From Patescibacteria group bacterium (lineage in GTDB: Bacteria; Patescibacteriota; UBA1384; 2-12-FULL-50-11; DASWYB01), in assembly GCA_041486955.1 (NCBI GenBank), contig JBGPML010000001.1, forward strand, positions 1-42,342: DNA of 42,342 bases, written 5' to 3'. The notes below the pieces were generated by a model. The model saw only the letters and a list, made by a program, of their open reading frames with translations, was not told the origin of the DNA and ran no database searches. Below, piece by piece: positions 441 through 18,683 of this stretch (its first letter is position 1; the number at the start of each line of letters is the position of its first letter). A program made the position numbers and the translations under genes.

Positions 441-477
441 TTCCGAAATTTAATTCGGAAACAGAAATCTCTTGTAA
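441..477 (+). other. 5' arm of 23S rRNA processing stem
   Basis: The segment ...GGAAACAGAAATCTCTTGTAA is complementary to 3699-3722 (TTACAAGAGATTTTCTGTTTCC) with one bulge. This is the typical RNase III-type stem bracketing a 23S. Confidence 0.7.
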
Positions 478-694
478 ATTAAGAGTATGTGGTGGATGCC
501 TTGGCACATATTGCCGAAGAAGGACGTCGCAGCCTGCGATAAGCCTCGGGGAGCTGGCAAGCAAGCTTTGATCCGAGGATTTCCGAATAGGGAAACCTAG
601 TCCAGCGAAATGCTGGATTGCTCTACGTTAATCGTAGTAGCGGGCACCGGCTGAACTGAAACATCTTAGTAAGCCGAGGAAAAGAAAATAGTAA

Positions 695-727
<33 letters not shown>

Positions 728-971
728 AAGCCCAAACCTGCACCCGCAAGGGAGCAGGGGTTGTAGGGTACACTTGTCTTTAATGACAGTTGATTGTGGC
801 GTGTTAGCAGAACGAGCCTGGAAAGGCCGACCAGAGTGGGTGATAGTCCCGTATGCGAAAACACAACACACATCGGTGTATACCTGAGTACCACGAAACA
901 CGTGCAATTTCGTGGGAATCCGCGGTGATCATGCCGCAAGGCTAAATACAATATGTGACCGATAGTGAACG

Positions 972-1002
<31 letters not shown>

Positions 1003-1054
1003 GGAACGGGGAGTGAAATAGTACCTGAAACCGCATACTTACAAGGAGTCGGAG

Positions 1055-1354
1055 CCCAGCACCCTGTGTGCTATACTTGCGAATATGTTTTACGTATATA
1101 TTCTCAAGGGCTCGTCTAATCCGTTGTTCTATATTGGTTTTACCACCAATTTGAATCAGCGATTGGAGCAACATAATAATCATAGCAACCCTTCAACAAT
1201 AAAAAGTGAAAATTGGCAATTAGTTTATTTAGAAGGCTATCAATACGAAAATGTTGCTCGTAATCGAGAGCGAATGCTCAAGCATTATGGAAAGGCTTGG
1301 CAAGCAATTAAGAAACGGATTAGCGAGGTAGAAAATAGTATTTAGGGTGCTGGG
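1055..1354 (+). other. intervening sequence / insertion capping 23S helix 25
   Basis: CCCAGCACCC (1055-1064) and GGGTGCTGGG (1345-1354) form a perfect 10-bp stem around 280 nt. Flanks GGAGC... and ...TGACGGCGTGCCTTTTG match the E. coli helix-25 neighbourhood. Confidence 0.7.
1085..1345 (+). CDS. small stand-alone GIY-YIG (URI-domain) nuclease encoded inside the 23S insert
   Basis: 86 aa. FYVYILKGSSNPLFYIGFTTNLNQRLEQHN fits the GIY-(~10 aa)-YIG plus R/E/H core of the short GIY-YIG family (COG2827-like). No SD. The stop codon overlaps the closing stem. Confidence 0.75.
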   Translation: MFYVYILKGSSNPLFYIGFTTNLNQRLEQHNNHSNPSTIKSENWQLVYLEGYQYENVARNRERMLKHYGKAWQAIKKRISEVENSI

Positions 1355-1854
1355 TGACGGCGTGCCTTTTGAAGAATGAGCCAACGAGTTAGCTAGGCGT
1401 GGCAAGCTTAAGGATTTTTGTCCGGAGGCGGAGCGAAAGCGAGTCCTAACAGGGCGATTAAGTCGCGTCTACTAGACCCGAAACCGAGTGATCTACCCAT
1501 GGGCAGGGCGAAGCGCAGGTAAAACTGCGTGGAGGCCCGAACCTACTGATGTTGCAAAATCAGGGGATGACCTGTGGATAGCGGAGAAATTCTAATCGAA
1601 CTCGGAAATAGCTGGTTCTCCTCGAAATATATATAGGTATAGCCTCATGTTAGCGTCCGGGGGTAGAGCTCTGAATGCTTGTATTGGGAGCAATCTCGAT
1701 TGAGCAATCAAACTACGAATACCGGTAACGCGTTGCATGGGAGTCAGACTGTGGGGGCTAAGCTCCATGGTCGAAAGGGAAACAGCCCAGACCGTCAGAT
1801 AAGGTCCCTAAATTCTAGCTAAGTGGAAAAGGAAGTGATCGTGCATAGACAACT

Positions 1855-1890
<36 letters not shown>

Positions 1891-3059
1891 TGCGTAACAG
1901 CTCACTAGTCAATTGCAAGGTCGCGCCGAAAATTTAACGGGGCTCAAGCTAGGTACCGAAGCTACGGACCCCGCACCCTCATGGGTGCTGGGTGGTAGAG
2001 GAGCGTTCTGTGTTGGCTGAAGCCGTACTGTGAGGTATGGTGGACGACACAGAAGTGAGAATGTTGGCATGAGTAACGATAAGTGGGGTGAGAAACCCCA
2101 CCACCGCAAGTCCAAGGTTTCCTCCGCAACGGTAATCGGCGGGGGGTTAGTCGGTCCTAAGGCGCAAGTCGATGGACAGCAGGTTAATATTCCTGCACAA
2201 CGGTGCGACTACCCGTAAGTGACGCATTTCAAAGTTTTACAGCACCTATGGCTATGTGTTGTAAGGTGGAGAGGTGACAGGAAAAGCTTACGAGAGCCTA
2301 TCACAGAGACCAACTTGGTTTATGATAGCGAGTAAATTTTGAGCGAAAACAGCGAACGAGTGAGGAAGCATAGTATCTTCTATGGTGACGAACTCTGAGT
2401 AGTTTGCAGCCAAAATTTACCGCTGATCGTATCAAGGATGGTTTGTGTGATAGGCTCACAACTACGCATTGTTTCCGTACCGCAAACCAACTCAGGTGGA
2501 CGAGGCGAGAAGCCTCAGGTGTTCGAGATAACCTTCGTTAAGGAACTCGGCAAAAAAACGGGCGTACCTTAGGTATATGCCCTGACCACGTAAGTGGTCC
2601 GCAGCAAACGATTTTCAGGCGACTGTTTACCAAAAACTTAGGTCTCTGCTAATCTCTAATGAGATGTATAGGGGCTGATGCCTGCCCAGTGCTCGCAAGT
2701 TACGGAGAGAGTTGACTTTCGATTTTTAATCGGAGGAGGACTTGAACTTAAGCTCGAGTGAACGGCAGCGGTAACTATAACCGTTCTATGGTAGCGAAAT
2801 TCCTTGTCAGGTAAGTTCTGACCCGCACGAATGGCATAACGATCTGAAAACTGTCTCAACGAAGGACTCGGTGAAATTACAATACCGGTAAAGATGCCGG
2901 TTACCCGCAACAAGACGAAAAGACCCCGTGGAGCTTTACTACAGCTTGTCATTGGGTTTGAATTTAACATGTGTAGCGTACGAGGGAGCTTCGGCGCCAA
3001 TGAAACACCTCGCTTGGTAAATTTAAACTCTTATCTGGATTCCGGAGACAGTGGCTGGT

Positions 3060-3105
<46 letters not shown>

Positions 3106-3243
3106 TTCAAAGGTACACTAGATACGGACGGAAATCGTATCGATAGTGCAAACGCATAAGTGTGCTTGACTGTCAGGCTTACAAGCCGAGCAGGTACGAA
3201 AGTAGGAGTTAGTGAACCGTGTCCGAACGAATGAAAGTCGGAC

Positions 3244-3285
<42 letters not shown>

Positions 3286-3309
3286 GCGCCCAATAGACCA
3301 CTTAGACGG

Positions 3310-3349
<40 letters not shown>

Positions 3350-3384
3350 AGTGAAGAAGCTCCCAAGGGTTTGGCTGTTCGCCA

Positions 3385-3419
<35 letters not shown>

Positions 3420-3698
3420 CGAGACAGTTCGGTCTTCATCTGTTGTGGGCGTTGAAGCTTGAGAGGGTCTGTCCCTAGTATGAGAAGACCGGGATGGACG
3501 AACCTCTGGTGTGCCAGTTGTACTGCCAAGTGCATTGCTGGGTAGCTATGTTCGGTTGGGATAACCGCTGAAAGCATATAAGCGGGAAGCCCGCCTCAAG
3601 ATTAGGCTTCGTTATGAGGGTCCTGGAAGACCACCAGGTTGATAGGCACTAGGTGTACGTGTAGCAATACATTTAGCCGCGGTGTACTAATAACCCCA

Positions 3699-3735
3699 TT
3701 ACAAGAGATTTTCTGTTTCCGATTAAGTTCCGGAA
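3699..3735 (+). other. 3' arm of 23S rRNA processing stem
   Basis: Complementary to 441-477 (see the 5' arm feature). Confidence 0.7.
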
Positions 3736-8259: not shown

Positions 8260-10941
8260 ATGACATTCAATCAACCCAAAATGTATAAAGCCTTTTGGCA
8301 ATCGCTCATTGGAATTGTCTTAGTTGCTCTTTTCATTGCTTTTTTATGGCAGCAAAGACGAGAACTGTACAATTTAAAACTGATAATCTTACAGGCAAAT
8401 TATACCTATATGTTTTTAGGGGTAGCGATAACCGGGGCATACTTTCTGGCTCAAGGTTTGTTTTATCAGAGCTGTTTGGCATTGCTGCACCAGCACGTCC
8501 CATTAACCGATGCAGTTAAAATCTATTTAAAGCGTTTCTTTGTCGGATCGTTTATTCCGGCCGGCTTTACTGTTTCTCAATTTACATTTCAATCTGACTT
8601 AAAAAAATATTCTATTAACGAAACAGAGAGTAATTTTGCGTCAATACTCTATCTTATTCTAGGTGCAATAACCTACGTTGCTATATTAATTCCTACCATT
8701 GTTTACCTCATTTATGGCAGTCATCTTACCTCACTCGAGCAGTACGGTAGCTTGGGTTTTATTGTCGTTATTTTGTTTGTCAGTATAGAGTTTTATTCTT
8801 TTATTCGCGAAAAGGGTATTGTCTATCGCTTGCTTCGACGTCTGATCCCGAATCTGTCATCTTTTATGGCGTCGTTACGAAAGACGTCATTCAACCGAAA
8901 TGTATTGATTCGAGCCTTTGCCTATAGTTTTCTTGTTGATGTATTAAGTATTGTAACGCTTTTAATAACGTTTAAAGCCTTAAATATCGCTCCCTCGCTT
9001 CTGATCGCCACGATTGGCTATGTCCTCACCATATTACTTCTGAGCATTTCACCAATTTTTGAAGGAATTGGGGTGGTAGAAGTCTCTTTGGTTTATGTCC
9101 TCATTCAATTTAATGTACCAAGAGATGCCGCCATTGCAGCAACTCTTCTTTTCCGATTGTTTCAGCTGTGGATCCCGTTTTTCATCGGATTTTTCTTGGC
9201 TTTACGAAATAAAATTGAAACTTCATTTCAATATCTACCAGTCGTATTAGTATTCTTACTCGGCGTAATCAATATCGTCTCGGCAGTAAGCCCACCGTTA
9301 ACCCACCGGCTTGATTTTTTGGAAGAGTTTTTCTCGCTGGATTTCTTAGTCTACTCGCGAATATTTACGCTCGTGTTGGGCTTTCTTCTTCTCTATCTGG
9401 TTTATAATCTTATTCATCGCTCCTACCGTGCTTGGCAAGCGACCGTTATATTTACTCTCTTTTCGATTATTGGCCATCTTGTTAAAGGGATTGATTATGA
9501 AGAGGCTGTATTCGGAGTAATTGTTTTAATTTCACTTTACATCTATAGAAACCACTATCGAATTAAAAATAGTTTGAGTCGGGTCAGAAAGGGCATAGTC
9601 ATCCTATGGATGGGGTTTGCCTTCGCCATATTTTATGGACTAATCGGATTTTATTTTCTTGATAAGAAACAATTTGGCGAGACGTTTACCCTCGGCCAGG
9701 CATTCCATCATCTTATTCGTTTATATTTTGAGTTTGGTGATATTAGTTTACATCCCCACACAATGTTTGCGCGTCTTTTTATCGGTTCAATTTATGGTGT
9801 TGGAATATTTTCACTCCTCTATGGAATTATATCGATTTTTCAACCAACCTTACGTGCATATCAAACTATTCCAGAAGAATATGATAAAGCCCAGCGTCTG
9901 ATTCAATCGTACGGCCATAACAATCTCGATTATTTTAAATTATATTGGGACAAGTCGTTCTTCTTTTCATCCACCAACGACGCATTTATTGCTTATAAGG
10001 ACATTAACGGTTATGCTCTCGTCCTCGGCGATCCTGTCGGCAAAAATGAAACAGCCATTAAACGAATAATTGAAGAATTTGCCGCATTCTCTGAATCGGC
10101 TGGGCTGCGAGTGGCGTTTCAGCAGGTGAGTAGTGAATATCTTAAGTTATATAAGCAGTTAGAATGGAATTATTTCAAAATAGGAGAAGAAGCCGAAGTG
10201 CTACTCGGGAATTTCTCACTGGAAAAGCCCGAGTTTAAAGAATTTCGGTCTATTATCCGTCGATTTGAAAGGGAAGGATACCGTTATACGCTTCATACCC
10301 CTCCGGTTAGTGCTGGTCTGATTCAAAAACTCCACCAAGTTTCTGACGAGTGGTTATCGTTACCGTTTCGAACTGAGCGGATTTTTACACAAAGTATGTT
10401 TGAATCAAGCGCCTTGATGCAGACAAAGATAGCAACGGTTGAAGATCACGAAGGCCAAATTTTAGCTTTTATCAGCCTCCTTCCTGATTATGATCATGGA
10501 AAGGTCGCATTGGATATGATGCGTCGAAAAACCAAGGTTCCGAATGGAGTTATGGAATTTTTAGTTGTTCAAACGATTTGGTCTCTCCTGCAATCAGGGT
10601 ATACATCCTTCAGTTTAGGATTAGCGCCTTTGTCGGGTGTCGGAGATCAGGAAAACGCAGGGATCCCCGAAAAATCGCTTAAATTTTTCTATGATCATTT
10701 TAATAAAGTGTTCAGCTATAAAGGGCTGCGGCAATTTAAAGCTAAATTCGCTCCGGAGTGGAGTCCCCGTTATTTGGTGTATCGAAGTCAAATAGAATTA
10801 CCCACATTGGCTGTTGCCTCCGTTAAAGCTGGGCAGGTCGGGGGCTTTACAGCTTTTTTTGAAAGTGCCCTCAAGCATCGACTTCAAACGAAACATGCCA
10901 CTATGATGGAACGAATCCAAAACAAAGAAAATACCTCATGA
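8260..10941 (+). CDS. mprF: bifunctional aminoacyl-phosphatidylglycerol synthase/flippase (MprF-like)
   Basis: 893 aa. The N-terminal part is polytopic membrane region. The C-terminal soluble domain (DYFKLYWDKSFFFS..., AFIAYKDINGYALVLGDPVG, KGLRQFKAKFAPEW) matches the MprF synthase (DUF2156-type) domain. Confidence 0.88.
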   Translation: MTFNQPKMYKAFWQSLIGIVLVALFIAFLWQQRRELYNLKLIILQANYTYMFLGVAITGAYFLAQGLFYQSCLALLHQHVPLTDAVKIYLKRFFVGSFIPAGFTVSQFTFQSDLKKYSINETESNFASILYLILGAITYVAILIPTIVYLIYGSHLTSLEQYGSLGFIVVILFVSIEFYSFIREKGIVYRLLRRLIPNLSSFMASLRKTSFNRNVLIRAFAYSFLVDVLSIVTLLITFKALNIAPSLLIATIGYVLTILLLSISPIFEGIGVVEVSLVYVLIQFNVPRDAAIAATLLFRLFQLWIPFFIGFFLALRNKIETSFQYLPVVLVFLLGVINIVSAVSPPLTHRLDFLEEFFSLDFLVYSRIFTLVLGFLLLYLVYNLIHRSYRAWQATVIFTLFSIIGHLVKGIDYEEAVFGVIVLISLYIYRNHYRIKNSLSRVRKGIVILWMGFAFAIFYGLIGFYFLDKKQFGETFTLGQAFHHLIRLYFEFGDISLHPHTMFARLFIGSIYGVGIFSLLYGIISIFQPTLRAYQTIPEEYDKAQRLIQSYGHNNLDYFKLYWDKSFFFSSTNDAFIAYKDINGYALVLGDPVGKNETAIKRIIEEFAAFSESAGLRVAFQQVSSEYLKLYKQLEWNYFKIGEEAEVLLGNFSLEKPEFKEFRSIIRRFEREGYRYTLHTPPVSAGLIQKLHQVSDEWLSLPFRTERIFTQSMFESSALMQTKIATVEDHEGQILAFISLLPDYDHGKVALDMMRRKTKVPNGVMEFLVVQTIWSLLQSGYTSFSLGLAPLSGVGDQENAGIPEKSLKFFYDHFNKVFSYKGLRQFKAKFAPEWSPRYLVYRSQIELPTLAVASVKAGQVGGFTAFFESALKHRLQTKHATMMERIQNKENTS

Positions 10942-17321: not shown

Positions 17322-18683
17322 ATGCCTTTATCCTCTCTCGAACCGATTGTGAATCTAGCCAAACGACGAGGATTCGTTGTTGGATCAAGTGAAATTTATG
17401 GTGGGATAGCCTCGATTTTTGATTACGGTCCGCTCGGTGTGGAATTAAAAAACAACTTAAAACAGTTGTGGTGGAAAACGTTTATTCACCAACGTGACGA
17501 CATGGTGGGGATCGATTCGTCGATTATTATGCATCCGAGAGTCTGGGAGGCCTCAGGCCATTTAGAAAGCTTTACTGACCCATTAGTTGAATGCACTAAA
17601 TGTCATATGCGTTTCCGGGAAGATCATATGCCGGAAAAATCAGACGGAAAATTTTGGAAATGTCCTGAGGGGGGTGAACATCATTTTTCTGAGGCCCGAC
17701 AGTTTAACTTGATGTTCAAAACATTTCTAGGGGCGACCGAAGAATCAGCTAATATCGCCTATTTACGTCCTGAAACAGCCCAAGGCATGTTTGCGAATTT
17801 TAAATATGTTCTAGAAACAACGCGACAAAAGGTTCCATTTGGCATTGGTCAGATCGGCAAGAGTTTCCGTAATGAAATTGGATTAGGCAACTGGCTTTTT
17901 CGCTTACGCGAGTTTGAAATCGCTGAACTGGAATTTTTTGTCAAACCTGGCACTGACGAGGAATGGTTTGACCATTGGGTAGGGGCGTGGGAGCATTTTT
18001 ATGAATCAGTGGGAATCGACAAAGCCAATATTAAACGGGACGAAAAGTCGAAAGAGAGTTTGGCCCACTATTCAAAACGAACGATTGATATGCATTATCG
18101 ATTTCCTCACGGGTGGGATGAGTTAGGCGGAATCGCTAATCGAACGGATTATGATCTCAAGCGTCACATGGAATTTTCGGGTAAAGATTTAACCTATTTT
18201 GATCAAGAAACGCATGAAAAATTTGTGCCTTACGTTATAGAGCCTACCCAAGGGATTGATCGCTTATTTATTGCGGTATTATGTGATGCGTACCGAGAAT
18301 ACCCAGGTGGTCGCAAAAGTGATGATGCGGCAATGCCTGAGGAGAAAGAACCAACAGAAACCGATGTGGTTTTGCATCTCAAGCCATTCTTGGCGCCTTT
18401 TAAAGTTGCTGTCCTGCCACTCGTAAAAAAGGATGGTTTGGCTGAGCTCGGAAAGCAATTGGCCGAAGATTTAAGAAAATCTATGACCACATTTTACGAT
18501 GAATCGGGTTCGATTGGTCGACGTTATCGTCGGCAAGATGAGATTGGCACACCCTGGTGTATTACCTTGGATTATCAAACGAAGGAAGATAATACGGTGA
18601 CGATTCGTGATCGTGACTCGATGGAGCAAGTAAGAATTTCTACTTCCGAACTAAATCATTGGCTCGAAAGTCGTCTTGTATAA
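17322..18683 (+). CDS. glyQS: glycine--tRNA ligase (alpha2 dimeric type)
   Basis: 453 aa. RRGFVVGSSEIYGG, YGPLGVELKNN, YLRPETAQG, FRNEI and EFEIAELEFF are class II GlyRS motifs. An anticodon-binding C-terminus is present. Confidence 0.95.
   Translation: MPLSSLEPIVNLAKRRGFVVGSSEIYGGIASIFDYGPLGVELKNNLKQLWWKTFIHQRDDMVGIDSSIIMHPRVWEASGHLESFTDPLVECTKCHMRFREDHMPEKSDGKFWKCPEGGEHHFSEARQFNLMFKTFLGATEESANIAYLRPETAQGMFANFKYVLETTRQKVPFGIGQIGKSFRNEIGLGNWLFRLREFEIAELEFFVKPGTDEEWFDHWVGAWEHFYESVGIDKANIKRDEKSKESLAHYSKRTIDMHYRFPHGWDELGGIANRTDYDLKRHMEFSGKDLTYFDQETHEKFVPYVIEPTQGIDRLFIAVLCDAYREYPGGRKSDDAAMPEEKEPTETDVVLHLKPFLAPFKVAVLPLVKKDGLAELGKQLAEDLRKSMTTFYDESGSIGRRYRRQDEIGTPWCITLDYQTKEDNTVTIRDRDSMEQVRISTSELNHWLESRLV

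Follow-up and report, generated by a model that had tools for sequence, protein, structure and literature searches.

Classical intervening sequences (IVSs) interrupt helix 25 or helix 45 of the 23S rRNA of Salmonella, Yersinia, Proteus, Coxiella, and other bacteria. They are excised by RNase III without ligation and either lack an open reading frame (ORF) or encode an S23/IVP protein of the four-helix-bundle type (PF05635). The GIY-YIG homing endonucleases, represented by the intron-encoded I-TevI and by the free-standing T4 Seg proteins, of which SegB is encoded in a tRNA gene cluster, exceed 200 residues and possess separate DNA-binding domains. Here we describe an insert that shares features with each of these systems. 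It lies in a 42,342-nt stretch of DNA from a Patescibacteria group bacterium (GenBank assembly GCA_041486955.1, contig JBGPML010000001.1, positions 1 to 42,342; hereafter the window), where a hairpin enclosing the gene of an 86-residue GIY-YIG nuclease takes the place of the tip of 23S helix 25. We consider it likely that this insert is an IVS-like, hairpin-bracketed nuclease cassette and one copy of a dispersed, probably selfish and mobile family in the CPR (candidate phyla radiation)/Patescibacteria.

The rRNA genes of CPR bacteria are known to be rich in inserts, and inserts with GIY-YIG ORFs are on record among them. In a survey of CPR rRNA inserts, most of those bearing an ORF were group I introns with LAGLIDADG genes and many short inserts were left unexplained, while GIY-YIG ORFs, judged sparse, of low incidence, and outside homing, all occurred in inserts unlike group I or group II introns (Tsurumaki et al. 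2024, PMC11270868). The short non-intron inserts at sites 23IS2 and 23IS4 match known IVS sites and were considered there to be probably RNase III-type IVSs, and non-intron GIY-YIG inserts in CPR 16S and 23S genes go back to Brown et al. (2015, as cited in PMC11270868). A preliminary description of the window had stated that endonuclease-bearing rRNA insertions are published for CPR; the literature confirms this and adds that the GIY-YIG ORFs among them are never found in introns. The insert described here is a further member of this published class, with which it shares the CPR genome, the rRNA gene, the known IVS site, the lack of group I/II similarity, and the GIY-YIG ORF. The bracketing stem, the common foot of that stem, the copies outside rRNA, the similarity to Ssn nucleases, and the abundance of the family go beyond that paper. 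Full-text searches of the literature on GIY-YIG proteins with RNase P RNA, with Patescibacteria, or with hairpin- or tRNA-linked mobility gave no other description of such cassettes.

Ssn nucleases (cd10448) are single-domain GIY-YIG proteins of about 94 residues that cut single-stranded DNA (ssDNA) beside NTS/SRM hairpin repeats, and these repeats both flank the ssn genes and are dispersed genome-wide (Chenal et al. 2025, PMC11893778). Neither rRNA, tRNA, nor CPR is mentioned anywhere in that paper, whose discussion raises IS200/IS605 TnpA and the REP/RAYT systems as an analogy.

The host gene of the insert matches the bacterial large-subunit (LSU) rRNA model of Rfam over its full length (2480 bits, model positions 1 to 2925; coordinates of all features are collected in Table 1) and is followed by a 5S gene (Rfam). 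It is the only 23S copy in an assembly of 0.84 Mb and 92% completeness, relatives having genomes of 0.5 to 1.1 Mb. In the local Rfam alignment, the LSU model halts at position 583 and picks up at 584, with about 290 extra bases in the loop of a single hairpin, which is helix 25 because it is flanked by GGAGC and TGACGGCGTGCC. The preliminary description had proposed helix 25 as the insertion site, with the conserved 23S sequence ending at GGAGC and restarting at TGACGGCGTGCC, and the alignment (LSU model 583/584; hairpin GGAGC...TGACGG) agrees with it to the base. The perfect 10-bp closing stem that it had reported is present as well and consists of CCCAGCACCC (1055 to 1064) paired with GGGTGCTGGG (1345 to 1354). 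The real pairing is longer: minimum free energy (MFE) and centroid folds alike join 1054 to 1074 with 1335 to 1355 in a stem of 21 pairs, G-U pairs included, with one U.U mismatch, and the same stem was the best inverted repeat found by script. The MFE of the region from 1040 to 1370 is -115 kcal/mol (z = -6.7 versus 100 shuffles).

Besides the ORF, the insert holds only 20 nt and the stem arms, in all about 40 non-coding nt. This leaves too little non-coding DNA for a ribozyme core, as had been argued against a self-splicing intron, and no intron family of Rfam matched the insert at gathering score or even at E <= 10. A one-off misassembly is unlikely, as database records place the identical 86-residue protein on two contigs, of which the longest measures 118.6 kb. 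The cassette lies on the sense strand of the 23S gene and is therefore made only as part of the 23S precursor. Its stem measures about two helical turns, a length sufficient for RNase III, and the same genome encodes this enzyme (G000:C3:3333-3719; PF14622, E = 6.5e-40; G000 is our label for the genome that holds the window).

The insert thus resembles classical IVSs in its position at the tip of helix 25, in its long closing stem, in its sporadic presence among relatives, and in the presence of a host RNase III gene. It differs from them in that the ORF encodes a nuclease, that the foot also occurs in hairpins of 16S and RNase P RNA, and that excision is here only predicted.

Helix 25 was compared with that of 24 relatives having a 23S match. 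Insert-free alleles, for which the preliminary description had proposed to look, exist: most relatives have a minimal helix 25 (e.g., GGAGC-CCGCAAGGG-TGACGG). Others carry ORF-less inserts of 80 to 190 nt, and lengths at this site vary overall between 4 and about 530 nt. In the sister genus (G002), whose flank is 91% identical, helix 25 bears a 91-nt ORF-less hairpin that stands on the foot of the window's cassette, CCCAGCAC...GTGCTGGG. This hairpin retains no detected similarity to the ORF, and no cassette-type nuclease was found in the G002 genome (97% complete). A relative of the same order (L020, genome G010) has a helix 25 insert of about 525 nt with an unrelated ORF of 133 residues on the rRNA sense strand (METEEVVNHSYRLSF...; locus 1050-1451, minus strand).

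The product of the ORF is a GIY-YIG protein. Pfam PF01541 matches residues 1 to 67 with E = 4.1e-15 and 56.3 bits (cut-off, 22.6), in line with the domain that had been proposed for it, and a Pfam scan at E <= 1 returned only GIY-YIG, T5orf172, MUG113, and GIY_YIG_2. The ORF accordingly lies, as had also been supposed, outside the classical S23/IVS four-helix-bundle family. Residues Y5, Y16, G18, R26, and H30 are invariant and E50 is nearly so across 24 homologs, and the window protein has all six, among them the two Tyr, the Arg, the His, and the Glu that are catalytic in the GIY-YIG superfamily. Its AlphaFold model (predicted local distance difference test, 87.8) shows the beta-beta-alpha-beta-alpha-alpha order of the GIY-YIG fold (E-E-H-E-H-H), the best matches of the model in the PDB being the UPF0213 structures 1zg2 and 1ywl, Slx1, and the catalytic domain of I-TevI (1ln0). 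A DNA-binding extension of the I-TevI type (TIGR01453) scored 16.1 bits, below the cut-off of 56.

The preliminary description had further noted an ORF without a Shine-Dalgarno (SD) sequence and with a stop codon buried in the closing stem. Both points hold. No SD-like 4-mer is found at positions -18 to -4, and SD-like motifs precede the start in 9 of 73 family copies, which is the random rate, as against 37% of the long ORFs of the window's genome, so that SD-less starts are a trait of the family. The stop codon TAG (1343 to 1345) overlaps the foot.

Searching a collection of 5.8 billion proteins yielded, at the sensitivity used, 23 homologs of the window protein, which bear the names Niyogibacteria and Parcubacteria. 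The closest (about 57 to 60% amino acid identity), from a Candidatus Niyogibacteria metagenome-assembled genome (MAG), has its gene in the helix 17 region of a 16S gene. Among the other close homologs, one lies in 23S helix 25, one in the 23S helix 63 region, and one outside RNA genes. A profile built from the 24 proteins, against which the window protein scores highest (123 bits), found matches in 289 of the 401 sampled genomes of the phylum and more than 1,000 matches overall. Copy number per genome ranges from 0 to at least 13, and several copies contain in-frame stops.

We then surveyed the genomic context of the 68 best-scoring loci, 19 of which, forming a second batch, were checked for tRNA and rRNA only, so that RNA contexts are possibly undercounted. 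Five loci lie within 16S or 23S genes; one of these, L041, comes from another class of the phylum and is again a helix 25 cassette whose foot, GCCCAGCACCC, is identical. Nine others lie within RNase P RNA, where most take the place of the P3 hairpin directly 5' of AGGAAAGUCC / AGGAAAGUCCG; only Rfam-supported cases were counted here, since recognition of RNase P by motif had proved false at L036, L047, and L055. At 17 loci the cassette stands directly before the start of a tRNA, from a 22-nt overlap to 34 nt upstream, and at one (L296, G330:C1; locus 801-1049, 1169-1572) a tmRNA gene (Rfam, 111 bits) follows the family ORF at a distance of 120 nt and in the same orientation. The remaining sampled loci are intergenic. 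Taken together, about half of the 68 loci either sit in a hairpin of rRNA or RNase P RNA or stand immediately 5' of a tRNA. Orientation follows that of the host RNA in all nine copies within rRNA (five sampled loci, three close homologs, and that of the window) and in all nine within RNase P RNA.

Two side observations concern the edges of such copies. At three loci of other genomes, 5' of tRNA-Met, tRNA-Lys, and tRNA-Ile (L042, L044, and L048), a second copy of the initial 9 nt of the tRNA (GGGNNNNTA) stands immediately upstream of the cassette, and the 3' foot provides the GGGY that opens the intact downstream tRNA. From these sequences it looks as if the cassette had entered after tRNA position 9 and the 5' end had been restored. 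At two intergenic loci (L045 and L047), the G-rich 3' stem arm (GGTGAGGGGG, GGGTGAGGGAGGAGGGG) comes within 4 to 6 nt of the start codon of a following gene, whose SD sequence it may either provide or mask.

The bracketing stem is a common property of the better copies. Among the 30 best, 25 have a stem of 13 to 23 bp with a CCCnnCAC / GTGnnGGG foot at its outer end (one of them being the variant CCCAGCCC), and in one further copy the stem is weaker (12 bp) and the foot is not of this type. Among the forms that the foot takes are CCCAGCAC, CCCCGCAC, CCCCTCAC, CCCCCCAC, and CCCCAACAC. The inner part of the stem varies in sequence from copy to copy while its pairing is kept. Lower-scoring subfamilies have other feet (e.g., CCCGTAGAGAA) or none.

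Copies in different settings can be each other's closest relatives. The window protein pairs with the 16S helix 17 copy (support of 97 in the Shimodaira-Hasegawa-like approximate likelihood ratio test [SH-aLRT]), and the DNA of the two cassettes aligns from end to end, including the sub-terminal GTGCTATA / ATAGT segments, so that their termini are homologous. In another genome, one member of a pair with a support of 99 lies in RNase P P3 and the other 44 kb away. On a quick tree of 90 columns, in which most forks are unresolved, context labels are clustered (21 changes versus 40.7 for shuffled labels), and the labels still require no fewer than 5 changes of context in the case of rRNA, 6 in that of RNase P, and 8 in that of tRNA. 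As far as this tree goes, the context has changed repeatedly; the mechanism is not thereby revealed.

We found that the foot is also a repeat within the genome. There, CCCAGCAC followed by GTGCTGGG within 700 nt forms 8 perfect hairpins, compared with a mean of 0.21 for 168 permuted words. Leaving 23S helix 45 aside, four of the eight are within RNA genes, namely in helix 25, in 16S, and in P3 and P18 of RNase P RNA, the latter two helices being named by eye, with AGGAAAGUCCG and ACAGAACUCGGCUUA in the flanks as guides. Similarity between interiors was seen in one pair only, that of the RNase P hairpins (z = 5). The tip of helix 45, the second classical IVS site, adds one more, imperfect copy, the 3' arm of which reproduces the cassette foot exactly; the helix 45 tips of relatives are unrelated to it, being either short or expanded by inserts of 110 to 210 nt. 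Short forms of the hairpin are seen both there and at C34:8749-8772. The second GIY-YIG gene of the genome (C13:8443-8700) was considered as a further cassette and rejected, as it is a YhbQ-type operon gene without a hairpin.

Counts of foot words were also compared between genomes. The word CCCAGCACC occurs 17 times in the window's genome (reversed-word control, 1) and 31 (6) times in the other genome with this helix 25 cassette, versus 2 (7), 7 (19), and 7 (5) times in three relatives without it. For CCCTCACCC, the counts were 13 (6) and 19 (5) in two cognate genomes and 5 (3) in a third, versus 1 (6) and 6 (5) in control genomes; for CCCCGCACC, they were 13, 27, and 38 (2 to 3) in three cognate genomes, versus 6 (3) and 3 (3) in the same two control genomes. 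In this small sample of hand-chosen genomes, the restriction of foot-word enrichment to genomes with the cognate nuclease is suggestive and not a statistical result. Many CCCCGCACC copies are plus/minus pairs about 100 nt apart. One genome (G330) has at least 12 such pairs (e.g., C5:51589-51697, C5:53140-53248, and C13:19552-19660), and these look like a gene-less hairpin family resembling miniature inverted-repeat transposable elements, with the foot of that genome's nuclease cassette.

Table 1. Positions of the features discussed. Coordinates are those of the window unless a genome and contig label precedes them.
Feature	Position	Strand	Basis and remarks
Host 23S rRNA gene	468-3710	+	Rfam RF02541; full length but for the insert; single copy in the assembly
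Whole cassette, a 302-nt hairpin in place of the helix 25 tip	1054-1355	+	LSU model gap 583/584; relatives have 4-7-bp hairpins there; full-length homology to cassettes at other rRNA sites
5' arm of closing stem, GCCCAGCACCCTGTGTGCTAT	1054-1074	+	Pairs with 1335-1355; conserved foot, 1055-1064
Predicted local hairpin hiding the start codon, CUUG.GAAUAUGU / ACGUAUAUUC.CAAG	1076-1108	+	MFE and centroid folds; a prediction
Single-domain GIY-YIG nuclease ORF, 86 residues, ATG to TAG	1085-1345	+ (as rRNA)	ORF list; PF01541; without SD
3' arm of closing stem, ATAGTATTTAGGGTGCTGGGT	1335-1355	+	Foot, 1345-1354; overlapped by stop TAG (1343-1345)
Helix 45 tip, a short hairpin, CCCCGCACCC-TCAT-GGGTGCTGGG	1969-1992	+	One stem mismatch; fold, -17.5 kcal/mol
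Foot hairpin, cassette in 23S helix 25	1054-1355	+	1 of 8
Foot hairpin in 16S, 92 nt	G000:C2:35690-35781 (L061)		1 of 8; about 163 nt from the gene start
Foot hairpins in RNase P RNA, gene-less, 77 and 89 nt	G000:C5:8874-8950, 9252-9340 (L062)		2 of 8; P3 and P18 positions
Foot hairpins, intergenic			4 of 8; two atop longer outer stems

To place the family relative to Ssn nucleases, its nearest characterized relatives, we used as a yardstick seven hairpin-flanked Ssn-type proteins from other bacteria, found via the NTS pattern, and three YhbQ-type proteins; in N. lactamica the profile matched only a YhbQ-type protein without repeats. The window protein is 37% identical to an NTS-flanked Ssn-type protein (E = 2e-10). 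In hhalign comparisons, the family profile matched the Ssn-type set with a probability of 99.0 and E = 7e-18, versus 97.5 and E = 6e-12 for the YhbQ-type set. The profile score of the UPF0213 protein 1zg2 (51.5 bits) is close to those of the Ssn-type proteins (48 to 59 bits). On the quick tree, the Ssn-type set forms a group of its own (SH-aLRT, 92) that joins the cassette copies in an unresolved fork, and the support of the whole against the YhbQ outgroup is only 81.

In their organization, too, the two systems are alike: each has a single-domain GIY-YIG protein of about 90 residues, inverted GC-rich repeats with a CCCGC-like core that bracket the gene, and extra gene-less cognate hairpins. 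However, the repeats of the cassette form one long stem that encloses the gene, whereas those of ssn genes are two separate short hairpins. Moreover, the C-terminal motif reads KKWxRxWKxxLIExxNPxW in Ssn-type proteins and LKxYGxxxxxLKKRIS in the cassette family, and it is the cassette copies that reside in stable-RNA genes. By analogy, the cassette probably works like the Ssn system, its membership in that family not being established.

With GIY-YIG homing endonucleases, the cassette shares the catalytic fold, the ties to conserved RNA genes, and a patchy, mobile-looking distribution, but it consists of a bare 86-residue catalytic domain and involves no intron. It is likewise comparable to IS200/IS605 TnpA and REP/RAYT in that a small palindrome-flanked gene is accompanied by dispersed gene-less palindromes of genome-specific sequence. 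Those enzymes, however, are HUH tyrosine transposases and belong to an unrelated class, and we know of no transposition chemistry for a single-domain GIY-YIG protein.

On this basis, a working scheme can be proposed for the mobile cassette. By analogy with Ssn, the nuclease would bind its own foot hairpin in ssDNA and nick beside it, and nicking would drive or maintain the spread by copying of hairpins that bear the foot into further hairpin loops. Genes of stable RNAs would be favored because they are heavily transcribed, and hence often single-stranded, and because an extra stem on a surface helix is tolerated. In the 23S precursor, the long stem would jut from the ribosome surface, and RNase III would probably cut its 21 bp, leaving two 23S pieces held together in the ribosome and an RNA of about 280 nt. 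The leader of this RNA, some 10 to 20 nt long, could allow SD-less translation of the ORF. Excision by RNase III is plausible; it could equally not occur, and the insert would then be a retained expansion. More tentatively, the cassette may be the autonomous form of an undescribed DNA element, moved or copied by a bare single-domain GIY-YIG protein that recognizes its own foot in ssDNA, and settling by preference in hairpin loops where stable-RNA genes are heavily transcribed; the foot hairpins without a gene would then be its non-autonomous satellites.

Several observations weigh against the mobile cassette and its satellites. Movement is deduced from phylogeny only, and from a tree that is short and poorly resolved; neither filled and empty sites within a species nor, at helix 25, an evident target-site duplication was seen. 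The gene-less hairpins were considered as deletion derivatives of the ORF cassette, and this was rejected, as their interiors have no similarity to it (z from -1.1 to 2.1). Furthermore, the 5' CCC and the 3' GGG of the foot may in part be native bases of the helix. Finally, the SRM pattern (HGTCWY N0-2 YYVSBRH N0-5 WNVSBRG N0-2 RNCYNB) is not enriched (6 versus 2.2 +/- 1.5 in 20 shuffles) and is absent at the cassette. On the minus strand of the helix 25 3' flank, CGTCAC-CCAGCAC fits the 5' half of this pattern, probably by coincidence, because it is conserved 23S sequence.

The nuclease and its hairpins could instead be a domesticated system that serves the host, for example by limiting or directing ssDNA recombination like SsnA and NTS in Neisseria, with helix 25 as a tolerated and highly expressed parking place. 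One intact nuclease gene facing at least eight cognate hairpins is indeed the numerical pattern of ssnA and NTS, the Ssn-type proteins stand closer to the family than the YhbQ-type ones do, and at least one CPR lineage is reported to be naturally competent (PMC10187176). Nevertheless, we regard domestication as unlikely: genomes differ strongly in copy number, in-frame stops interrupt some of the copies, and the gene is missing from close relatives, G002 having the helix 25 foot hairpin and no nuclease. This pattern resembles a cycle of gain and decay more than a conserved host function. In addition, most foot hairpins of this genome lie within RNA genes and not around protein genes.

Less probable again is a retained expansion, in which 300 nt would be kept in mature 23S rRNA as a surface rod and the ORF would be an untranslated relic. 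The start codon, devoid of an SD-like motif and placed in a predicted local hairpin, and the stop codon within the stem would fit such a relic, as would the tolerance of helix 25 for inserts of very different length among relatives and the many unexplained short inserts of CPR rRNAs (PMC11270868). A relic would not be expected to be intact, to reach the top profile score, and to keep every invariant residue, and SD-less starts are the rule across the 73 copies, most of which are intact, so that not all can be dead; the stem is moreover a canonical RNase III substrate in a genome that has rnc.

A self-splicing intron with a homing endonuclease, or an assembly artifact, is very improbable even though most ORF-bearing CPR rRNA inserts are group I introns with LAGLIDADG genes (PMC11270868) and rRNA regions of MAGs are prone to misassembly, as the insert has some 40 non-coding nucleotides, no match to an intron model, and no DNA-binding domain (TIGR01453, 16 versus 56 bits), and as the identical protein stands on a second, 118-kb contig and the same site and foot recur in another class of the phylum (L041).

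Elsewhere in the window, positions 17322 to 18683 encode a protein of 453 residues whose best relatives are found in Spirochaetota MAGs (52 to 58% identity) and not in CPR; judged by this similarity, the gene is a candidate for horizontal acquisition. A like search with another protein of the window gave no match, and the 16S gene of the genome does not match the TM7 (Saccharibacteria) primer and probe sites.

For annotation, cassettes of this kind matter in that they split rRNA and RNase P RNA models and yield 'hypothetical protein' calls inside RNA genes. In terms of biology, LAGLIDADG intron inserts have an accepted mechanism of spreading, whereas intron-less GIY-YIG inserts have none and were set aside as sparse by the only systematic study. 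The window offers a clean case, in which the sole 23S gene holds one intact nuclease gene, the foot is defined to 10 bp, hairpins on that foot are found in 16S and RNase P RNA among other places, and Ssn provides a biochemically characterized relative that cuts ssDNA beside such hairpins. If the protein cuts ssDNA at CCCAGCACCC hairpins, this would connect three topics now treated apart: the intervening sequences of rRNA, the nucleases of the Ssn type, and the way in which structured-RNA genes have expanded in ultra-small bacteria. If the cassette is indeed the autonomous form of a mobile element, this would explain the spread of intron-less inserts in CPR rRNA genes and would give the Ssn family a natural role.

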